From a virus (lineage: Duplodnaviria; Heunggongvirae; Uroviricota; Caudoviricetes), in IMG/VR virus record IMGVR_UViG_2925891887_000002: 58,711 bases of DNA. The stretch is one strand, 5' to 3'. The notes beneath the pieces were generated by a model that was not told the DNA's origin, searched no databases, and saw only the letters and a list, made by a program, of their open reading frames with translations. The position numbers were made by a program, and so were the translations under genes. Each line of letters starts with the position of its first letter. The stretch's first letter is position 1. Below are positions 16,231 through 49,164 of the stretch, piece after piece.

Positions 16231-16754
<524 letters not shown>

Positions 16755-16755
16755 G

Positions 16756-18535
<1,780 letters not shown>

Positions 18536-18590: not shown

Positions 18591-18923
18591 TTAAACGATG
18601 CTGATTGCCGTTCCGGCAAACGCGGTCCGTTTTTTCGTCTCGTCGCTGGCAGCCTCCGGCCAGAGCACATCCTCATAACGGAACGTGCCGGACTTGTAGA
18701 ACGTCAGTGTGGTGCTGGTCTGGTCAGCAGCAACTGCAAGAATGCCAACGGCAGCACCGTCGGTGGTGCCATCCCACGCAACCAGCTTACGGGTGGAGGT
18801 GTCCAGCATCAGCGGGGTCATTGCAGGCGCTTTCGCACTCAACCCGCCGGGCGCGGTTGCGGTATGAGCCGGGTCACTGTTGCCCAGCGGCTGGTAATGG
18901 GTAAAGGTTTCTTTGCTCGTCAT
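18591..18923 (-). CDS. D: Head decoration protein D
   Basis: 110 aa from [12 protein letters not shown], lambda D match. Confidence 0.9.
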
Positions 18924-19328: not shown

Positions 19329-20252
19329 TCGCCCTCCTGAGAGACGGGATTTACGTGCATCCAGTGCATCACGCATGACGGTGATCGCATCGGTACTGTT
19401 CACAAGTTCATCAGCCAGTCCGGCATCAATGGCCTCCTGACCGCTGTACACTGCAGCCTCGGTATCCAGCACAGCCTGCACGGACAGGCCGGTATATGCC
19501 GACACCTTCTGTGCAAACATCCGGCGGGTTGCATCCATCCGGGACTGCAGTGTTTCCCGGACATCATCCGGTAGATGGCTGTAGGGGTTGCCATCCACCT
19601 TATGGCTGCCGCTGTAAATCAGCGTGATTTCCACGCCCTGTTTCTCCAGCGCAGCACCGTAATTACTGTGAGCCATCATGACGCCGATGGAGCCTGTCCG
19701 GGCGGTCTGCGTGACCAGACGCCGGGAGGCGGCGCTGGCAAGCAGCTGACCTGCACTGCAGTTCATGTCGTTGGCCAGCGCCCATACCGGTTTTATGTCT
19801 CGCACACGGGCGATGATGTCAGCACAGTCAAATGCTCCCGCCACCATCCCGCCCGGTGTGTCCATATCCAGCAGAATGCCGTCCACAATCGGATCGCTGG
19901 CAGCCTGTTGCAGACGGGCGATAATGCCGTTGTAACCGGTCATCCCCGAATACGGCTGCAGCGCCCGCGTCCGGCTGACCAGCGTGCCGGACACCGGCAG
20001 CACGGCGATGCCGTTCATGACCTGATAACTGCGGGCCTGTCGTGGTCCGTCATCATCAACGGATAACGCCAGCGCCGCGGGTGCCTCTCCGGCAGTCAGG
20101 CTGTCGCCGGACACCGCATCCGCCAGGCGGCTGATCCCAAGCTGGCCTGCAAGCGCACAAAAGAAAACCCGCGCATAGGCGGGTTCAAGCATCAGCGGCT
20201 CATTAAAGGCCATACTGGCAATATGCGGGAGATTACGCAGCTCTGCTGTCAC
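18933..20252 (-). CDS. C: Capsid assembly protease C
   Basis: 439 aa from GTG (VTAELRNLPHIASMAF), lambda C match. Confidence 0.9.
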   Translation of the reverse strand: MTAELRNLPHIASMAFNEPLMLEPAYARVFFCALAGQLGISRLADAVSGDSLTAGEAPAALALSVDDDGPRQARSYQVMNGIAVLPVSGTLVSRTRALQPYSGMTGYNGIIARLQQAASDPIVDGILLDMDTPGGMVAGAFDCADIIARVRDIKPVWALANDMNCSAGQLLASAASRRLVTQTARTGSIGVMMAHSNYGAALEKQGVEITLIYSGSHKVDGNPYSHLPDDVRETLQSRMDATRRMFAQKVSAYTGLSVQAVLDTEAAVYSGQEAIDAGLADELVNSTDAITVMRDALDARKSRLSGGRMTKETQSTTVSATASQADVTGVVQATEGENASAAQPDVNAQITAAVAAENSRIMGILNCEEAHGREEQACVLAETPGMTVETARRILAAAPQSAQARSDTALDRLMQGAPAPLAAGNPASDAVNDLLNTPV

Positions 20253-21012
20253 TCTTCTCCTCCTCTGTTGATTGTCGCAGCCCGGATTCAAATGCTGCAG
20301 CCGCCCAGGCGGGCGGTTTAAGACCGGCTGCACGGCGCTCCATCGTTTCACGGACCTGCTGGGCAAAAATTTCCTGATAGTCGTCACCGCGTTTTGCGCA
20401 CTCTTTCTCGTAGGTACTCAGTCCGGCTTCTATCAGCATCACCGCTTCCTGAACTTCTTTCAGACCATCGATGGCCATACGACCGGAGCCTATCCAGTCG
20501 CAGTTCCCCCAGGCACTGCGGGCTTCCTGAAAACTGAAGCGCGCTTTTGAAGGTAACGTCACCACGCGGCGAACGATGGCCTCTTCCAGCCAGCACAGAA
20601 ACATCTGGCTCGCCTGACGGGATGCGACGAATTTTCGCCGCCCCATAAAGTACGCCCACGACTCGTTCGCACTGGCCCGTGCCGTGGAGTAGCTCATCTG
20701 GGCGTAATTCCGGGAAAGCTGCTCATACGAGACACCCAGCCCGGCAGCAATATACCGCAACAGTGACTGCTCAAACACGGAGTAGCCGTTATCCGTGTCC
20801 TGAGCCGTCTGCAGGTTCAGTGAGTCCCCCGGCATCAGGTGCGGCACTTTTGCGCCTCCCAGCCGGACCGGTGCTGCGGCGTAATACGCGGCAATTTCAC
20901 CAATCCAGCCAGTCAGCCTTTCCCGCTGCTCCTGACTGTTCGCGCCCAGAATAAAATCCATCGCTGACTGCGTATCCAGCTCACTCTCAATGGTGGCGGC
21001 ATACATCGCCTT
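20233..21012 (-). pseudogene. B: Portal protein B, C-terminal fragment
   Basis: MYAATIESELDTQSAMDF...EEEKSDSRAA matches the lambda B C-terminal half; homology stops at the satellite junction. Confidence 0.9.
21001..21012. other. Satellite att core copy, left junction (ATACATCGCCTT)
   Basis: Direct repeat of 31400..31411 with one mismatch. Confidence 0.65.
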
Positions 21013-21086
21013 TATGAAAAGACAGGAAAAAATAAAATTTAAAAACAGTACATTACGAATGCTCAGACCTATCGTTTAAAGGAGTC

Positions 21087-21107
21087 GCAATACACACTGC
21101 AATACAC
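21087..21107 (+). repeat. Two GCAATACAC direct repeats, putative integrase arm-type sites (left end)
   Basis: Same 9-mer occurs three times at the int-proximal end. Confidence 0.5.
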
Positions 21108-21218: not shown

Positions 21219-21450
21219 GATTGGATACCTGGCTTTTTTCCGGTTAACCTTTAATCAGGCTGGTGGGCTTTACCTGTTTTGTATGAGTGGTCATCATGAC
21301 CATGTCATAACAAAAACCCCATATTCGTGGTTTTTCTGTGTCGGGCTATTCTGTCGTTGCTGTGCTGATTTGGCTGGTGGGCTGAATCATCATTACGGCG
21401 ATGCAGCTATGTAGACGTTCCGGCCTCCTCAAATTGAGGATTGTGGAAGA

Positions 21451-21810
21451 ATCAATGGGTTAGTCTTACTTTCCCGACATCCCCCAATGGGGGTTTTCGA
21501 AACAATCAATAGCTTAGGCTTACTTCCCCGATTTCCTGCATTGCAGGTTTTCGAAATAATCAATGGGTTAGGCCATCGTGCAATTTTGCACTTTGCCAGC
21601 CAGCGCAATGTCGCGTTATCAGTCCTCAGATGTGAGGGATGTAGCCAGCTTTTCCCCCAGTGGGGGATATCCAGCACCGACGGCTTAACTGTGCGTGCCA
21701 GCACAAGGTAGCCTTGAACTACTTACTGCATCCCATCTTACAGGCCGTGCCTTCCTGCTTAACTTTTTGCAATGCAACAAGTCAGCCAGCGCAATTTTGC
21801 GTTATCGGGA
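21451..21810. repeat. Array of 54-bp tandem repeat units and 12 to 14-bp GC-rich palindromes, several followed by T-runs
   Basis: Units at 21451, 21505, 21559; palindromes at 21481, 21535, 21578, 21654, 21790. Confidence 0.7.
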
Positions 21811-21821
21811 ATATCAGCAAG

Positions 21822-22103
21822 TTACCGCCGCAATCGTTCCGGCTTCTTCCACTGGTAAGTATTTTTCGCGCTCTCCCTCCGTTGTTGAGAACGGCGACGA
21901 TATGCCAGCAACTCAAGGACTCTTGTTCGTATGTTGCGCATATCCACGCCGTTAAGCTCAATACCGTCACGGCGCATCACCTCAGCCACTACACGCACAT
22001 AATTATCTGCGGTCACGCTGTCCGGCTGCGTGGCCTGTTCGTCATGCTGCTTGCTGATTCCACAAGCACGGCGGATTAATCGCAGTATTTCGGATTCAGT
22101 CAT
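21822..22103 (-). CDS. Hypothetical protein (satellite)
   Basis: 93-aa ORF just downstream of the terS-like gene, same strand. Confidence 0.4.
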   Translation of the reverse strand: MTESEILRLIRRACGISKQHDEQATQPDSVTADNYVRVVAEVMRRDGIELNGVDMRNIRTRVLELLAYRRRSQQRRESAKNTYQWKKPERLRR

Positions 22104-22114
22104 AGCGTACTACG

Positions 22115-22642
22115 TTACTTATCTTTATTCGGCTGCAACTTATCCGGTACGTTTCCGGCAGTTTCCATCAGATAATCGGACAGCATCAGCGGTATGTTTT
22201 CGTCAAGTTTTGCGCATGCGTTACGGGCTCTGATAACTTCTTTTTTCAGTCCATCCAGCATAGACGGCTTCATGTCGGGAAACTTCCTTGTCATGGCAAG
22301 CGGCAGGCTGTCCATGATTGAAGAAATCTGACTCGCTAGTTTTGAAATCGCGTAGATGCAAAACTTTGTATCAATCACCTCGCCGCGTTCGCGCTCGTTT
22401 TTAAGTTCCTGCGCTTCCGCCTGGGCCGTCATTAATCTGATTCTTACGCGTAAAAGTTCATCATCATCAATCTCGCCTTTGTCGTCTGTAATCTGGTTAA
22501 TTGCATTGCTAACCCGATTGTCTATTACGCTGGCAACATCATAAAACGCCTCGCGGCCTTTACGTTCAACGGGAGTCACTCCCCACTTGTCGAACGCTGT
22601 CGCACTTACACGGCAGCTTTGCGCCATGTTTTTTTTGTTCAT
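22115..22642 (-). CDS. Small terminase (Nu1)-like protein, candidate packaging-redirection factor
   Basis: C-terminal two thirds align with Nu1 at 34333..34878 (RLxxAQAxAQELKN..); N-terminus divergent; start chosen at MNKKNMAQ. Confidence 0.7.
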   Translation of the reverse strand: MNKKNMAQSCRVSATAFDKWGVTPVERKGREAFYDVASVIDNRVSNAINQITDDKGEIDDDELLRVRIRLMTAQAEAQELKNERERGEVIDTKFCIYAISKLASQISSIMDSLPLAMTRKFPDMKPSMLDGLKKEVIRARNACAKLDENIPLMLSDYLMETAGNVPDKLQPNKDK

Positions 22643-22790
22643 CAGGTGCGATTTCATCAATATCCCCACTTAAGTAATGTTTCAGGTTGGTGTATTGGCT
22701 TTATCTTTTCCTTTTTATTCATAGAGATAGAGCGAACAACAAAACCACCACCAGCACCCGAAAAAGGCTCATAAATAGCGAAAACCCGCG

Positions 22791-22802
22791 AGGTCGCCGC
22801 CC
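22791..22802. other. Satellite cosN (12-nt cohesive-end sequence)
   Basis: AGGTCGCCGCCC with lambda-like flanks on the cosQ side, divergent on the cosB side. Confidence 0.8.
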
Positions 22803-22858
22803 CGTAGCCTACCGGATCGCCGGAAAGGACCCGCCAGCCAGAACGGGCCCTAATTTCA

Positions 22859-23263
22859 TCAACCAATCAACTTATAGCGACCATCCCGTGCATTGCGACG
22901 TACACGCTCAATCTTGAGGCATAGCGCCGCATCTGGCTTTTTTGGGACAGGTACGCGGCAATATTCAGAAGATCGAGGAATATTGTTTATCCAGTCGATC
23001 ACTTCACTTAAATACCAGGCCTTACGCCCTTCCGTAACCTGTACGCGTTCGGGGAACTCTCCGCGAGCCTCAAGGTTTAGCAATGTGCGACGGCTAAGGG
23101 TAGTAAGTTCCATCACCTGATTCATATCAACAAGGCGTTCACTTAAACGCATTTTGTCAGCAATAGCCTTTAATTCCTCTACTGCTGGATCCGGATACAT
23201 CATTTCGGCAATTGGCTTAAGGTCATTGTAATGATTCTGCATTGTATCCCCCTTTACACACAA
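22859..23263 (-). CDS. AlpA-like HTH protein with N-terminal extension
   Basis: 134-aa ORF; C-terminal half has an AlpA/excisionase-like motif. Confidence 0.5.
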   Translation of the reverse strand: MCVKGDTMQNHYNDLKPIAEMMYPDPAVEELKAIADKMRLSERLVDMNQVMELTTLSRRTLLNLEARGEFPERVQVTEGRKAWYLSEVIDWINNIPRSSEYCRVPVPKKPDAALCLKIERVRRNARDGRYKLIG

Positions 23264-23595
23264 GCCAGCGGCTGAACAGAAATACCTGAGCCAACAAACG
23301 CGGCAACCTTTGCCGACAGTTCTTTTACAGACTCAGGCCAGTTCAGAGCATCAACATTTAAAACACCTGTCTTATAAACCTGTGCCTGTGTTTTTTTCGC
23401 TGTGTCGATTTGTACAGCGGAAACATAAACCGCTTTACCTACGCTCGAACCATCCCATACCACCAGTGCACCTGTTGCATCTTCCTGCATCAGTGGCGTA
23501 AATGCAGGAATTACCCCTTTATTAGCTGAAAATATCCCCAGCGTAGTCACCAGTGCTTCAGTGCCAGCCATGAGTTCAGTGTAATGAGTAGCCAT
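23254..23595 (-). CDS. Head decoration protein D homologue (satellite)
   Basis: 113 aa; conserved blocks shared with D at 18591..18923 (TPLM..WDG, K(S/T)G..WPE). Confidence 0.7.
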   Translation of the reverse strand: MATHYTELMAGTEALVTTLGIFSANKGVIPAFTPLMQEDATGALVVWDGSSVGKAVYVSAVQIDTAKKTQAQVYKTGVLNVDALNWPESVKELSAKVAAFVGSGISVQPLACV

Positions 23596-23604
23596 TGCTC
23601 CCCC

Positions 23605-24651
23605 TTAGCCAATGCGAACGGTAACAAAACGATTGATGCGGGCCGGTATTGGCTGTGGTGCTGAATGTGTCTGCACATATTCAATAGCCGGATCACCAGG
23701 CACAATATAGTTTTTCGGTGCAAGTTCGGCTTTAGTCAGCCCCATTCGGATTAGCTCCGGATCCTGAATACCGCCATAGGCGACAATCCCCTGAAGAGCC
23801 GTATTGCCAAGCACCATCAAATCAGGATCAAGGAAATGTTTTTCTGTTCCGTCCTCGTCGGTATAACGCCCGCTGTAAACAACAATCGCAACATCGCCCA
23901 TATACCCTTTAAAACTCACCGAATCACCAAGGTCTTTAAGGGCCGTTTCCAGTTCGGAATTAGAACCACGACGGGTATCCAAAGCCTCTTTTATCGCTCT
24001 GAATGAACGGTATTTCTTCCATACATTACCACCCATAATGATGATATTAGTGACGCCCTCACTAAATTCTGCGTAGCTCTCAATATCATCATTTGGATCA
24101 AAAGTTTCTTTATCCTTACCTGACCACTCAGTACCGCCAGACTGAGTGATGATATTTTGTGGTTTTATATTCCAGTCCAGCTCATAACGTTCAATACCAT
24201 CGCCCTCAATGATATTTTTCCCCGTTGTGATTGCCTGAACAGCAAGCCATTCAATACGTGCACGAATAGCTTTAGCCTGATTTACAATCGCCTGTTTAAC
24301 TTTAATATTACGCGCCCCAAAAGCATTGTATTGCTCAGGTGACACACCAGCAGGGCGCACAGCTAACTTATTTGGATCAATGCTGCTTTTCGGCTTCATA
24401 TAACCTGGACGAATTGTTTTTGATTCGTATCCCTCATCTCGTGAAACTTTACTGCCCACCATAGGAGAGCAAAACGCCGCGATCGGGATATTTGGATCGT
24501 CGATCGTATCAAGAATAATGTCTCTCGATTCAAACATTACCGAGCGAGTGAAAAACAAACTGGTAAACAACGCATTTAATTTTTTTTGCACATCTTCAGC
24601 ATTAGCCACCTGCACAAGCTGTGTAGGCGAATATAAATCAACCATACGCAT
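23605..24651 (-). CDS. Major capsid protein E homologue (satellite)
   Basis: Aligns with E along its length (ITQSGGTEWS, DPxDDIE, LDTRRGSNSELETA, AIVVYSG); start chosen at MRMVDLY; ORF extends upstream to 24819. Confidence 0.75.
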   Translation of the reverse strand: MRMVDLYSPTQLVQVANAEDVQKKLNALFTSLFFTRSVMFESRDIILDTIDDPNIPIAAFCSPMVGSKVSRDEGYESKTIRPGYMKPKSSIDPNKLAVRPAGVSPEQYNAFGARNIKVKQAIVNQAKAIRARIEWLAVQAITTGKNIIEGDGIERYELDWNIKPQNIITQSGGTEWSGKDKETFDPNDDIESYAEFSEGVTNIIIMGGNVWKKYRSFRAIKEALDTRRGSNSELETALKDLGDSVSFKGYMGDVAIVVYSGRYTDEDGTEKHFLDPDLMVLGNTALQGIVAYGGIQDPELIRMGLTKAELAPKNYIVPGDPAIEYVQTHSAPQPIPARINRFVTVRIG

Positions 24652-24862: not shown

Positions 24863-25312
24863 TTAAAACGGAATATCATCTCCCCATTGCTCATTTTCTC
24901 CCACTGGTGGATGGCTTCCTTGCTGATCTGCCTGTTGTTTTGCTCTGTTCAGTGCGTCAGTAGCCTGACCCTGTTGACCTTTTTTGCCGCCCGGTCGCAC
25001 CGTTCGCGCACTGATTACGCTGTCTGCGATAACCTGCCAGCCCTGCCGCGTTTCACCGTTCTGGCCTGTCCACTGTCTTACCTGCATGTTACCCGCCACG
25101 CTCACCAGTTCGCCTTTGTGGTGTTTTGCCAGTGCGTCGGCCTGTCTGCCAAACGCCAGGACGGATAACCACATCGTCGCCGTTCCGTCATCTGCCTGGC
25201 TGCACGGAAGGGGGACCGCCATACTAGCCATCGTCATTTGTGTACCCTTGCTGGTGGTCTTTAACTGCGGGTCAGCCACCAGCCGCCCGTAAGCCGCTAT
25301 CTGTGCTGTCAT
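24863..25312 (-). CDS. ssb: Single-stranded DNA-binding protein
   Basis: 149 aa, OB-fold-like, ends with the SSB acidic tip DDIPF. Confidence 0.7.
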   Translation of the reverse strand: MTAQIAAYGRLVADPQLKTTSKGTQMTMASMAVPLPCSQADDGTATMWLSVLAFGRQADALAKHHKGELVSVAGNMQVRQWTGQNGETRQGWQVIADSVISARTVRPGGKKGQQGQATDALNRAKQQADQQGSHPPVGENEQWGDDIPF

Positions 25313-25560
25313 GCTGTCTGCTCTCCAGTTTTAACGTTGATGGTTGTCACCTGTTCCGCTTCGGCAATCTCCCGTTCTGTCAGCGTGGCAAAGTTTGCCG
25401 CCGTCGTGGTCATGAATGCGCTTATCAGTTCGGGGTGTGCTTTCGCGTATCCTTCCCCAGCGTGGCGGTCTATCGTTCTGATTGCCACCTTTAAGGCGTG
25501 CTCTGTCATGTCTAACGCTTTATATTTTGGCGCTGTCTTATCTCTGGTTTTTCTGGTCAT
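25309..25560 (-). CDS. Hypothetical protein (satellite)
   Basis: 83-aa ORF between ori and ssb. Confidence 0.4.
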   Translation of the reverse strand: MTRKTRDKTAPKYKALDMTEHALKVAIRTIDRHAGEGYAKAHPELISAFMTTTAANFATLTEREIAEAEQVTTINVKTGEQTA

Positions 25561-25765
25561 TCCTCACTGCTCCCCACTTTTACTACCCACTTTTTGAAAT
25601 TACCCAACGTCTCCCCACTTCTTTTTTTTGTGATTCTAACGTGATGTTTTTCAATGTGTTTTTTATTCCCCACTTTTTGGGGTATATACAGGTGGGAAAG
25701 TGGGGAATCACGTTTCAATTTTGTTAAATTCCCCACACTCCCCACTTTTACTACCCACTTTTTAC
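25561..25765. repeat. Putative satellite replication origin with CCCCACT iterons
   Basis: At least eight CCCCACT(T) motifs in both orientations plus AT-rich stretches, directly 3' of the rep gene. Confidence 0.6.
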
Positions 25766-27177
25766 AGTGGGCGCACGTCATCACCGTCAATAGCAATAAC
25801 GCCATCACCTTCCAGCTTGTACAGCCAGCGCCGGAAGTGTTTCATCTCATACCCCAGCTTTTTCATATCATCGCGCAACAACGGAATAGTGCATTTATCT
25901 CCGCGCTGTGTGCGTGAACGGATACAGCCCCATAGCGCGGCATGATTCTCCGTCTTGTTCCCGGCTTCCTCGATGCGCTCCAGTTCAACGGGTGGGCGCG
26001 GCTTATCCACAACAACCAGCGACGTGATTAACTCCCCGTCAGTGTCGGTAAAAAGCTCCACCACACGTAAATCGTATGCGGCCTCTTTCAGTTCCTCCGC
26101 GTCCTTCATTTTTGTGCAGGAGATAACCAGGGCTTCACTGTCTGCACCTTCACGGCGAATACGGTATTCAGCGTCCAGAGATGCACGAAATGCACTGGAA
26201 CCACGCGCCCCCTTTGTTTCATCCTTGCCGGAATGGTGAACCACCAGCACCGTGGCCCCTGTGCGGCGTTTCAGTTCGTCACATCCACGGATAAACGCCC
26301 CCATATCCCGCGCGTCATTTTCATCATTACCGCCAAAGCAACGCGCCAGCGTATCAAGAATAATCATGCGTACCGGTTTACCCGTTTCCCGTTCAACCTG
26401 GCGGGAAGCGATGACCATTTCATCAACATCAAGCGGGACTGCCGGAAAAATCGGGCGGTTTACCAGGTACAGATTTTCCACCCGTTCATCATTAACGATT
26501 TCCCATGCCTTGATACGGCGGGGGACACCAATGCCACCTTCACCGACAACATACATCACCGAACCATGCGCCACCCTGCGGCCTCCCCAGTGACGGCCAG
26601 TGGCAACATGACACGCCCAGGAACACGCGAGGAACGATTTATAGGAACCGCTCGCGCCGTATGTGCTGCACAATGAATTAGCCGGAATCACGCCCTTAAC
26701 GACATAATCAAGCTGTGTGTCGTACCCTGCAGATCCAATGCTCATTGGTAGCGTGGTTTTTCGCTGGCTGTATTGCTCGTCAGTAAGTATTTCCCCGCGC
26801 TCTGCCTGTTCGCGGATCCGTTGCAGGTAGTCGTGCCAGTTCTCCAGCTTCTGGCTGTGCATTCCATCAGGGTAATAATTCGCATCCCGTACACCTGCCG
26901 CCGCCAGCTTTTGCCCGATAGCATTAATATTTGACGGCTTGATGTGGCCTGCCTTGTACAGCCGGACACAATAGCGACCATCGTCGATAATTTTCAGGTC
27001 TGCCAGTTCGTCAAGCTGGCTGTCTCCCAGCCATACAGGCGGGACGTTATCACCAGCAAGTCGCCCGTCCTGTTCCTGCCACTGTTTCGCGTGCGCCCAG
27101 GCATCACTACCCGCAAAAATAATGACTTCGGTCATTTTGTCGTGTGGCTGTTTTTTTAAGTTCGGTGCCAGTTTCAT
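25762..27177 (-). CDS. Replication initiator ATPase (RepA/AAA_25-like helicase with primase-like N-terminus)
   Basis: 471 aa; Walker A GASGSYKS; ILDTLARCF and LVVHHSGK motifs. Confidence 0.7.
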   Translation of the reverse strand: MKLAPNLKKQPHDKMTEVIIFAGSDAWAHAKQWQEQDGRLAGDNVPPVWLGDSQLDELADLKIIDDGRYCVRLYKAGHIKPSNINAIGQKLAAAGVRDANYYPDGMHSQKLENWHDYLQRIREQAERGEILTDEQYSQRKTTLPMSIGSAGYDTQLDYVVKGVIPANSLCSTYGASGSYKSFLACSWACHVATGRHWGGRRVAHGSVMYVVGEGGIGVPRRIKAWEIVNDERVENLYLVNRPIFPAVPLDVDEMVIASRQVERETGKPVRMIILDTLARCFGGNDENDARDMGAFIRGCDELKRRTGATVLVVHHSGKDETKGARGSSAFRASLDAEYRIRREGADSEALVISCTKMKDAEELKEAAYDLRVVELFTDTDGELITSLVVVDKPRPPVELERIEEAGNKTENHAALWGCIRSRTQRGDKCTIPLLRDDMKKLGYEMKHFRRWLYKLEGDGVIAIDGDDVRPL

Positions 27178-28325: not shown

Positions 28326-28422
28326 AGCTACCTCGATACTGTTGCTATCGTTGGTGGTTAGAAGCCCGGTTAGTGTTAGCGCACTGCCGGGTTTCGTCGT
28401 TTCTGCACCTTGCACCAACAAG

Positions 28423-29702: not shown

Positions 29703-29960
29703 TTATTGCTGTTTTGTTTTTCCAGGTTTCCATCCAGGATGCCACTCACCACGGATCCATGCCTGAACCTCTGAAAGTCGATACCCTGCAGCACGTTCAC
29801 CGATCTTGATACGTCGCGGGAATTTACCTGCCTGCTCCATTTTCCAGCGTGTTGAGTTTGCCAGCGTGGTAAGTGCTATGCACTCTTTTTCACGAATGAA
29901 CCGATCAATGTCCTTCATTGTGCGCAAATCGTTTTCATCAACAAGAGAATAAATTGCCAT
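29703..29960 (-). CDS. alpA: AlpA-family regulator / excisionase
   Basis: 85 aa, AlpA motif, directly downstream of int. Confidence 0.75.
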   Translation of the reverse strand: MAIYSLVDENDLRTMKDIDRFIREKECIALTTLANSTRWKMEQAGKFPRRIKIGERAAGYRLSEVQAWIRGEWHPGWKPGKTKQQ

Positions 29961-29961
29961 A

Positions 29962-31203
29962 TCACACCACCTCTTTATTAAGCTCGATAACGTTGTTGTT
30001 AAATCCTGCTATCGTATTAAGGTAATTAACCCATATATTAAGCACCTCAAGTTTTTTCTTTATATGCCTGCTTTTATTGTAAACACCAGCAACCCCTTTC
30101 ACTTTATGACCTAAAAGAAGTTCGACAATATAAGGATCCGCCCCCATATCATTAAGCGTAGTGGAAAATGTGCGCCTGAAATCATGTATGCACCACAAGC
30201 CATTAGTATCATGACCAAGACGCCTGCATATTCTGTTTGCAGCCCCTGTTATTGTCGCCCTTTGCAAAGCACAACCGACAACATAACCGCGATTTTTTGT
30301 TTCTGCGTAAAGATTAACGATCCATTGTTTTATTCCGTCAGGAACAGGCCTTACTATAGCCTCCTTGTTTTTGCTGTGCTCTTTTGGGACTGTCCATACC
30401 CAGTTTTTTAAATCCCATTCGTCCCAGGTGGATAGCCTCGCCTCCTGCTGTCGGCAACCAAACACCAGGCAGATAACCATTATTCTTCGGTTATATATTG
30501 ATGACAGAGTTAGCAAATTATTACCGTAAGCATAAGACCATACATCAGCGGTTTCATTGATATTAAGAACGCGATCCCTTATACCGGATGAGCGCCCGAC
30601 ATAACTTACGTTAATATCTCCAAAGGGATCGCACGCGATGTATTGCCTGACGCGACAAAAACGCAACGCCTGTTTGATATCAAGAAAAATTGCACCAGAC
30701 ATAACAGGCGCATTTTTTTTGATCCTGTCAAAGACGGTAAGCCATGTGTGTAATTTGCACTGTTCTATAGCCATATCACCGATATAGGGGAAGATATGCT
30801 TTTCAAATCGTTTTATTAAATATTCATGCTCTTTTCTGGCTGTTGTGGCGTGATTGTCGTACCAGTAAAACAGCGCATCCCTTACGGTCACTGGTTGCAT
30901 AGTTTTTTCGGCAGCAAGTTTTATTTGCCTGCGGGGGTCCAGATTTTCAGCCAGCCATTCACGGCACTGATCACGCATGCGCCTGGCCGTTGCAAGAGAC
31001 ATGTCAGGATAGCGACCAAGTGTAAGCCATACCGGAGGGGATTCCCTGCCACCAAGACGATAGTAAAAAACAAAGCTGATCCCCCCAACCATGCTTACAC
31101 GCACAGACAACCCGCGCCCATCCGCTATTGTTTTTTGTTTGTCCTGCCGTTTTCCGACAAGACTCTTTAACAGTTTGTCACTGAGTTTGTTTTCAATAGC
31201 CAT
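29962..31203 (-). CDS. int: Tyrosine integrase (P4/PICI-type)
   Basis: 413 aa; C-terminal HDFRRTF and LLGH..Y catalytic motifs. Confidence 0.85.
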   Translation of the reverse strand: MAIENKLSDKLLKSLVGKRQDKQKTIADGRGLSVRVSMVGGISFVFYYRLGGRESPPVWLTLGRYPDMSLATARRMRDQCREWLAENLDPRRQIKLAAEKTMQPVTVRDALFYWYDNHATTARKEHEYLIKRFEKHIFPYIGDMAIEQCKLHTWLTVFDRIKKNAPVMSGAIFLDIKQALRFCRVRQYIACDPFGDINVSYVGRSSGIRDRVLNINETADVWSYAYGNNLLTLSSIYNRRIMVICLVFGCRQQEARLSTWDEWDLKNWVWTVPKEHSKNKEAIVRPVPDGIKQWIVNLYAETKNRGYVVGCALQRATITGAANRICRRLGHDTNGLWCIHDFRRTFSTTLNDMGADPYIVELLLGHKVKGVAGVYNKSRHIKKKLEVLNIWVNYLNTIAGFNNNVIELNKEVV

Positions 31204-31223: not shown

Positions 31224-31274
31224 GCAATACACACCCATCCCGATCGCCAATTTGCAATACACATTGCAATACAC
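31224..31274 (+). repeat. Three GCAATACAC direct repeats, putative integrase arm-type sites (int-proximal)
   Basis: Copies at 31224, 31254 and 31266. Confidence 0.5.
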
Positions 31275-31399
31275 AAAACCGCGAAAAACTGGAAGGGTGA
31301 TGAACGGTCATCAAAAGCATGGAAAACGACATTCCAGACGCAGCAAGGGTTTCAGTGGAGTTGGCGAACGATGCGGGCAACTACGGTGAGATGATAGAC

Positions 31400-34332
<2,933 letters not shown>

Positions 34333-48466: not shown

Positions 48467-48742
48467 GTGGCTTCTGTTTCTATCAGCTGTCCCTCCTGTT
48501 CAGCTACTGACGGGGTGGTGCGTAACGGCAAAAGCACCGCCGGACATCAGCGCTATCTCTGCTCTCACTGCCGTAAAACATGGCAACTGCAGTTCACTTA
48601 CACCGCTTCTCAACCCGGTACGCACCAGAAAATCATTGATATGGCCATGAATGGCGTTGGATGCCGGGCAACTGCCCGCATTATGGGCGTTGGCCTCAAC
48701 ACGATTTTACGTCACTTAAAAAACTCAGGCCGCAGTCGGTAA
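48467..48742 (+). CDS. insA: IS1 InsA
   Basis: 91 aa, InsA match. Confidence 0.9.
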
Positions 48743-49164
48743 CCTCGCGCATACAGCCGGGCAGTGACGTCATCGTCTGCGCGGAAATGGACGAACAGTG
48801 GGGCTATGTCGGGGCTAAATCGCGCCAGCGCTGGCTGTTTTACGCGTATGACAGGCTCCGGAAGACGGTTGTTGCGCACGTATTCGGTGAACGCACTATG
48901 GCGACGCTGGGGCGTCTTATGAGCCTGCTGTCACCCTTTGACGTGGTGATATGGATGACGGATGGCTGGCCGCTGTATGAATCCCGCCTGAAGGGAAAGC
49001 TGCACGTAATCAGCAAGCGATATACGCAGCGAATTGAGCGGCATAACCTGAATCTGAGGCAGCACCTGGCACGGCTGGGACGGAAGTCGCTGTCGTTCTC
49101 AAAATCGGTGGAGCTGCATGACAAAGTCATCGGGCATTATCTGAACATAAAACACTATCAATAA
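48661..49164 (+). CDS. insB: IS1 InsB frame (expressed as InsAB' by -1 frameshift)
   Basis: InsB match; A6C slippery motif TTAAAAAACTC at about 48716. Confidence 0.85.

Follow-up and report, generated by a model that had tools for sequence, protein, structure and literature searches.

The satellite embedded in the prophage of this window (the whole 58.7-kb stretch of DNA that was analysed) encodes a major capsid protein (MCP) and a decoration protein (Dec) that, judged from sequence comparisons, form an old, satellite-only lineage under strong purifying selection. The pair is real, but it is a published feature of Gram-negative PICIs. EcCICFT073 was described with a capsid gene (c1499) and a head decoration gene (c1500) (Fillol-Salom 2018, PMC6092414). 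Of 29 reference Gram-negative PICIs, 21 have capsid genes, and insertions in gene B are catalogued among the helper-embedded PICIs (HE-PICIs), whose sites are concentrated in the helper genes A, B, C and E (Mageeney 2023, PMC10111431). The novelty implied by the original prediction for this DNA therefore does not hold. What we add is the satellite-only lineage, the absence of a close phage relative, the purifying selection and the fixed, inverted gene order.

The window is 100% identical to a region of E. coli CFSAN064035 (NZ_CP031134.1). The DNA is that of a lambdoid prophage in reverse orientation, which occupies the lambda attachment site in the bio/ybhB–ybhC interval. This prophage is the helper, and its head genes run D then E (Table 1). 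Helper E is a pseudogene in CFSAN064035, broken by IS621 between ...DDIEA and YALNAS..., so that the sole intact E-type gene of the window is that of the satellite. The helper is further damaged by an IS1.

Table 1 Features of the satellite and of the helper head genes in the window.
Feature	Position	Strand	Remarks
Helper portal gene B, N-terminal fragment	31412..32233	-	runs on into the satellite, stop at 31352
att core AAGGCGAT, portal N-fragment/satellite junction	31404..31411	-	
Integration zone	29703..31203	-	tyrosine integrase 29962-31203; AlpA 29703-29960
Replication zone	24863..27177	-	RepA-type helicase 25762-27177; iteron ori 25570-25763; 83-aa ORF; SSB 24863-25312
Satellite MCP, 346 aa, lambda-E family, PICI-specific lineage	23605..24645	-	
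Satellite Dec, 113 aa, lambda-D/SHP family	23254..23595	-	start 9 nt past the MCP stop codon
AlpA/excisionase-type HTH protein	22859..23242	-	directly 3' of Dec, same operon; PF05930; phrog_2790 2e-48
Satellite cos	22769..22836	-	~66-bp block near-identical to helper cos; cosB side diverges
Nu1-like small terminase TerS, 180 aa, full length	22115..22657	-	PF07471; phrog_57 1e-50
Conserved 93-aa protein, last late-zone gene	21822..22103	-	phrog_1561
att core AAGGCGAT, satellite/portal C-fragment junction	21005..21012	-	
Helper portal gene B, C-terminal fragment	20233..21004	-	
Helper decoration gene D, intact	18591..18923	-	
Helper major capsid gene E, IS621-split	16231..18535	-	fragments 17978-18535 and 16231-16698; IS ~16699-17977

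The satellite measures 10,399 bp between its two 8-bp AAGGCGAT cores, in agreement with the 10.4 kb first estimated. It splits portal gene B in frame at codon ~277 and is co-oriented with the helper late genes. Excision in silico, removing one core and the intervening DNA, regained an uninterrupted 533-aa Phage_portal_2 protein. The junction falls at position ~235-246 of the Phage_portal_2 profile, which fits the site B:Phage_portal_2:241 catalogued for HE-PICIs. Both att arms carry a doubled motif TGTATTGC (21086-21107 and 31254-31275) of a kind reported as unique to helper-embedded PICIs (Mageeney 2023, PMC10111431). As published, each attP arm has a doubled tgTGTATTGCantgTGTATTGCa, at 81 and 132 bp from the centre (Mageeney 2023, PMC10111431); here the copy on the int side begins ~132 bp from the centre of the core, and the second copy is ~78-98 bp from it. 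The integrase contains Arm-DNA-bind_3, Phage_int_M and Phage_integrase domains, an architecture that, as far as domain content goes, fits HE-PICI/fis-PICI integrases.

All satellite ORFs except two small ones lie on one strand, in the layout int-alpA-Bro-Icd-DUF4222-helicase-ori-SSB-MCP-Dec-HTH-cos-TerS, followed by the 93-aa ORF. EcCICFT073 and PICIs inserted in the chromosome are laid out alike. Pfam and a repeat search predict that the RepA/AAA_25 helicase, iterons and SSB make up a replication module of the satellite's own. MCP, Dec and TerS are the only structural or packaging genes, and RefSeq annotation, Pfam and PHROGs agree with the original prediction that portal, protease, scaffold, large terminase (TerL) and tail genes are missing inside the satellite. 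PHROGs also returned no size-determining factor. The predicted partial head set thus stands as regards MCP and Dec, but the list omitted the cosN and the Nu1-like TerS. An Rfam scan of the satellite gave only one sub-threshold symR-like match, and three 54-nt repeats (21420-21581) showed no significant structure and no family match.

This organisation is that of the Gram-negative PICIs defined by Fillol-Salom 2018: an int and alpA end, a replication module with ori, a packaging signal and factor, and a small size within the ~10-15 kb range, with no lysis genes and an incomplete structural set. The portal, protease, head-tail connectors and TerL that define the capsid-forming PICIs (cf-PICIs) are absent, and the flanking portal fragments are the helper's. 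The satellite is a classical Gram-negative PICI, helper-embedded in portal gene B.

Sequence and model comparisons identify the satellite MCP as a complete HK97-fold, lambda-E-type shell subunit. It aligned to Pfam Phage_cap_E (PF03864, E 4.9e-41) over profile positions 4-327 of 329, and to helper E end to end (42% identity over 348 columns, E 8e-86). The alignment with helper E drawn earlier therefore holds, but the helper gene used for it is the IS621-split pseudogene, which was reconstructed here. Solved structures matched by the MCP include 3BQW (1e-121), whose sequence, crystallised in 2008, is that of the EcCICFT073 c1499 product, and lambda gpE (7VI9, 9e-78). An AF2 model (pTM 0.80) superposed with a TM of 0.89 on 3BQW and of 0.84-0.85 on lambda gpE, the structural comparison that had been proposed as a check. 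The gene itself was correctly called; its start at 24651 was two codons too far upstream, and 24645 is favoured by an AGAGGA Shine-Dalgarno sequence 5 nt upstream and by the RefSeq start. In a promoter and terminator scan upstream of MCP, counts were no higher than the shuffled expectation.

The Dec sequence is that of a lambda-D/SHP-type cement protein. Pfam HDPD (PF02924) aligned over profile positions 1-111 of 116 (E 4e-15) and helper D at 38% identity (E 8e-18), and PDB matches included 1TD0/1TD3 ('Head decoration protein', 4e-16) and lambda gpD (7VII_H/1C5E, 8e-12). With clear matches to gpE, 3BQW and gpD/SHP, the possibility that the two proteins have unrelated folds was rejected, and both capsid homologies of the original prediction were confirmed.

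MCP and Dec form a tight operon with the HTH gene, just upstream of the satellite cos and TerS. The HTH gene is kept beside Dec in contexts L005-L008 and L011. An exact lambda-type cosN, GGGCGGCGACCT, lies at 22791-22802. TerS is 37% identical to helper Nu1 over 180 aa (E 3e-34); we considered and rejected its assignment as Rpp, as it aligns with Nu1 from end to end, and the match of RppA (c1503) is confined to the N-terminal wHTH.

Comparison of homologues separated the PICI proteins from those of phages. MCPs of PICIs from Escherichia, Serratia, Edwardsiella and Lelliottia share 51-84% identity with one another and only 39-47% with the E protein of any helper or phage. Among helper E proteins, identity is 60-81%, and Dec follows the same pattern. 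Clustering of 109 full-length MCP homologues gave 46 PICI-type and 63 lambda-type sequences with a mean between-cluster identity of 42%. No protein more than 60% identical to MCP or Dec was found in 50,697 phage records. Since, in addition, helper E and D are only 42% and 38% identical to the satellite proteins, recent capture from the resident helper was rejected. The genes run MCP-Dec in every PICI context examined and Dec-MCP in every phage context examined, so the reversed order seen at the outset is real and proved diagnostic for the PICI lineage.

The pair is widely distributed. It occurs in 395 of 5426 complete E. coli genomes and is retained in the PICIs of Serratia, Edwardsiella and Lelliottia; the attL junction occurs in 64 of the 5426 genomes. 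The late module is ~97% identical in DNA at three PICI sites: portal gene B (L006, in strain JNE23-011, whose helper E is intact), chromosomal clpS/cspD (L007) and helper gene E (L008). One scaffold from a metagenome (L013) encodes a chimeric lambda-E/PICI-MCP protein (P0043), in which the join falls within only 13 nt of identity. We dropped this chimera as evidence of compatibility because it stands on that single scaffold and is found in 0 of the 5426 E. coli genomes.

Neither ORF is broken in any of the contexts examined. MCP has a dN/dS of 0.03-0.09 and Dec one of 0.06-0.18, at dS values reaching ~1.4. Ratios of 0.03-0.18 indicate that the two genes are functional and not decaying captures. 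They bear on the view that the pair is a passive relic, an accidental capture of helper late genes that has no present function. PICIs do capture helper late-gene clusters (PMC10111431), and deletion of c1499 or c1500 had no laboratory phenotype, as a relic would predict. Against this, the ratios are low although dS reaches values above 1, the lineage spans genera with no close phage donor in the 50,697 records, and the inverted order is fixed with both reading frames kept. We regard a relic as scarcely credible and already close to refuted. Rather, a satellite-only lineage, purifying selection and a fixed order together imply that a real selective role must exist.

What this role may be is constrained by published work on EcCICFT073. 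Transductants per ml were 3.8e3 for delta-c1499, 8.7e3 for delta-c1500 and 8e3 for the wild type; neither deletion relieved interference with lambda; c1499::cat served as an efficient transfer marker; and the DNA encapsidated on induction with lambda was all phage-sized, the terminase skipping cos sites (PMC6092414). PICI capsid genes have likewise been reported as dispensable for transfer (Mageeney 2023, PMC10111431). EcCICFT073, the nearest experimental model, does not support the mixed or size-altered capsids of the original prediction and argues against an altered size.

With moderate confidence, we propose that MCP and Dec provide a self-supplied, redundant stock of shell subunits for full-size heads, with no size-determining device. 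Helper induction would lead to satellite transcription, to which read-through from the helper's Q-antiterminated late transcript would probably contribute. The satellite would excise at AAGGCGAT, repairing gene B, and would then replicate, using its own ori. MCP and Dec would act as real shell subunits on the helper portal, C protease and Nu3 scaffold, and the resulting heads would be full-size, T=7 and lambda-type, built from the satellite proteins with or without helper gpE and gpD. Helper TerL, which the satellite TerS would direct to the satellite's own cos, would package a four-unit concatemer (4 x 10.4 = 41.6 kb). This length is 86% of the lambda genome (48,502 bp) and within lambda packaging limits.

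Such a stock would lessen the dependence of the satellite on helper E and D. It would be useful if these were interrupted, defective, mismatched or divergent, as may apply to PICIs embedded in gene E and to CFSAN064035. We propose full-size rather than small heads because EcCICFT073 packages only phage-sized DNA, and a back-up role because the MCP-Dec module is also present in PICIs embedded in helper gene E (PMC10111431). The retained transfer of the c1499 and c1500 deletions counts against a subunit stock, in that the pair is not needed under laboratory conditions when the helper is intact. A further weakness of the proposal is that the EcCICFT073 MCP is only 55% identical to the present one, and that element has Rpp instead of TerS, so that extrapolation to the present satellite is imperfect.

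Another role for the pair would be redirection of head size. The satellite MCP, with its matched Dec, would join or replace helper gpE and change the curvature of the shell, giving small heads (e.g. T=4 or T=3) for one or two 10.4-kb genomes and excluding the helper genome. The Ccm protein of SaPIbov5, an MCP homologue, is reported to act in this way, and PmCI172 has an MCP homologue and forms small heads. The present lineage also has its own TerS, unlike EcCICFT073.

The distribution of sequence differences within the MCP could be read in the same direction. Twenty-two positions are conserved within each MCP clade yet differ between the PICI and lambda clades. The E-loop (43-90), the spine helix with its neighbouring P-domain strands (123-158) and the C-terminal P-strands (324-334) are where these positions are found, and A-domain residues 161-260 contain only 1 of the 22. 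In lambda, the E-loop and P-domain regions make inter-capsomer and Dec contacts (PMC5701804). On the modelled structure this pattern would fit an MCP and a Dec that are co-adapted, but it is only suggestive, as the regions were chosen post hoc. On inter-capsomer surfaces, the same residues could equally well reflect an altered geometry.

Size redirection is opposed by the exclusively phage-sized DNA packaged from EcCICFT073 with lambda, by the interference that persisted in both deletions, and by the lack of a scaffold or size-determining factor among the satellite genes. Moreover, Ccm acts with no decoration partner and is not itself a complete substitute for the shell protein. We consider this role unlikely.

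A bolder version is specific to the TerS-bearing PICI branch. Here MCP and Dec would build the satellite's own shell, exclusive of gpE, on the helper portal, protease and scaffold, possibly with a smaller T number and holding one or two 10.4-kb units. We judge this decidedly unlikely. If true, it would make these elements intermediate in evolution and mechanism, since classical PICIs steal whole heads and capsid-forming PICIs tails only, and strains with an IS621-destroyed helper E would still release satellite particles.

The pair might instead act on the helper or the host. In this case MCP and Dec would poison helper head assembly, or would serve as decoys or alternative antigens by which the infected cell or the particles evade capsid-sensing host defences. 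Satellites often interfere with their helpers, and the pair is strongly conserved though dispensable for transfer, and has moved far from all known E and D proteins of helpers. However, lambda plaquing was not restored by delta-c1499 or delta-c1500, and EcCICFT073 interference maps to Rpp, c1503 (PMC6739421). A poison subunit would also have no need of a matched, full-length and well-conserved Dec, and the present analysis found no link to a defence system. We think a poison or decoy role very unlikely.

Capsid and decoration genes are the commonest phage late gene set in Gram-negative PICIs, and the only knock-outs made in them are free of a phenotype. The interest of the pair thus centres on why PICIs retain it. 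Natural configurations lend themselves to tests of this question, for example a helper E broken by IS621, as in CFSAN064035, and PICIs embedded in gene E.

Compared with known systems, the satellite resembles P4 in exploiting helper head proteins and carrying a helper-type cos. P4 has no MCP homologue and relies on Sid, an external scaffold, and Psu, a decoration protein; Pfam and PHROGs found no homologue of either in the present satellite, and the distinction from P4 drawn earlier is upheld. It is equally distinct, as predicted, from capsid-forming satellites, whose full head module it lacks. With the cf-PICI EcCIEDL933 it shares the PICI backbone (int, alpA and rep), a capsid gene of its own and TerS, but cf-PICIs also encode their own portal, protease, head-tail connectors, HNH and TerL and form small capsids, and those genes are absent here. 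SaPIbov5 is similar in that it lacks portal and protease and that its Ccm is a homologue of the HK97-fold MCP of the helper. Ccm steers the helper MCP towards small capsids and is not accompanied by a decoration protein, whereas the E. coli relative of the present pair yields only phage-sized DNA.

The closest parallels are with other PICIs. Like 11capE and the B:Phage_portal_2:241 group of HE-PICIs, the satellite lies within a helper late gene and is co-oriented with it, and it shares with HE-PICIs the doubled TGTATTGC in both att arms, the four-zone organisation and the MCP gene in the late zone. 11capE itself is inserted in gene E and lacks terS, whereas the present satellite is inserted in gene B and has TerS. 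EcCICFT073 differs in being chromosomal rather than helper-embedded, in having a primase where the present satellite has a RepA helicase, and in carrying Rpp (c1503) and no TerS in place of a full-length Nu1 homologue. Both elements nevertheless have a lambda-type cosN and place MCP, then Dec, downstream of the replication zone, and their products are 55% (MCP), 54% (Dec) and 76% (the last, 93-aa gene) identical.

The helper-embedded arrangement of the satellite, with a PICI inside the portal gene B (B-site) of a lambdoid prophage, closely resembles that in an Edwardsiella tarda locus, where a PICI divides the prophage portal gene into fragments encoding 286 and 257 aa. The B-site arrangement therefore reaches beyond Escherichia. 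The same capsid (MCP), decoration (Dec) and AlpA-type (HTH) gene module also occurs in a PICI of E. coli 14EC020, but this element carries a DUF262 and HEPN gene pair where the window element has its small terminase (TerS) region. We interpret this pair as likely defence cargo. The Lelliottia sp. SL45 PICI has a larger head-gene set than the window element, as it adds an S49 gpC-like protease that is 50% identical to the helper protease C. This set is a possible step towards capsid-forming satellites.

Features of the window and of comparison loci (L008, L009, L010 and L013)
Feature	Location	Strand	Context
IS621	window 16699-17977 (transposase 16805-17785)		inside helper gene E (16231-18535)
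Three tandem 54-nt repeats	window 21420-21581		near satellite end, downstream of last ORF
Iterons CTCCCCACTTTTACTACCCACTTTTT, spacing 83-85 bp	window 25570-25763		just downstream of RepA-type helicase gene
symR-like Rfam match, sub-threshold	window 28326-28398	+	32.9 bits vs gathering score 61
IS1A copy	window ~48467-49164		helper immunity and early region, beside cI-like repressor
PICI with MCP-Dec-HTH module	L008 6386-8102		E. coli 14EC020; embedded in helper capsid gene E
Helper-embedded PICI	L009 765-12681		Edwardsiella tarda; in portal gene of lambdoid prophage
PICI with MCP, Dec and protease	L010 10001-12752		Lelliottia sp. SL45; chromosomal, adjoins fis
Chimeric capsid gene	L013 2801-3829		metagenome scaffold ERZ28600228

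One metagenome scaffold encodes a chimeric capsid protein that matches lambda E from the N-terminus through ...LDTRRGSNSELETA and the window-type PICI MCP, at 100% identity, over the remainder. The switch falls within only 13 nt of common sequence. Lambda C and D lie ahead of the chimeric gene, and the PICI Dec comes after it. This arrangement was found in none of 5426 complete E. coli genomes. The chimera may be an artefact of assembly or may reflect true recombination.

The helper major capsid gene E is cleanly split by IS621. Because the same insertion recurs in several further complete E. coli genomes from differing sources (rows H145-H151), we suggest that lambda-type E genes contain a recurrent, sequence-specific IS621 target. 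Together with the IS1A copy beside the cI-like repressor, the interrupted E suggests that the helper prophage of this strain is defective.

Within the satellite, the iteron stretch is probably the replication origin. The tandem repeats are 65-72% identical and each contains a short palindrome; they had no Rfam match and their folding was not significant (z -1.9). The symR-like match sits directly upstream of the Icd-like gene, in antisense orientation to it, and may indicate an antisense regulatory RNA of the kind described in the immunity regions of P4 and PICIs.
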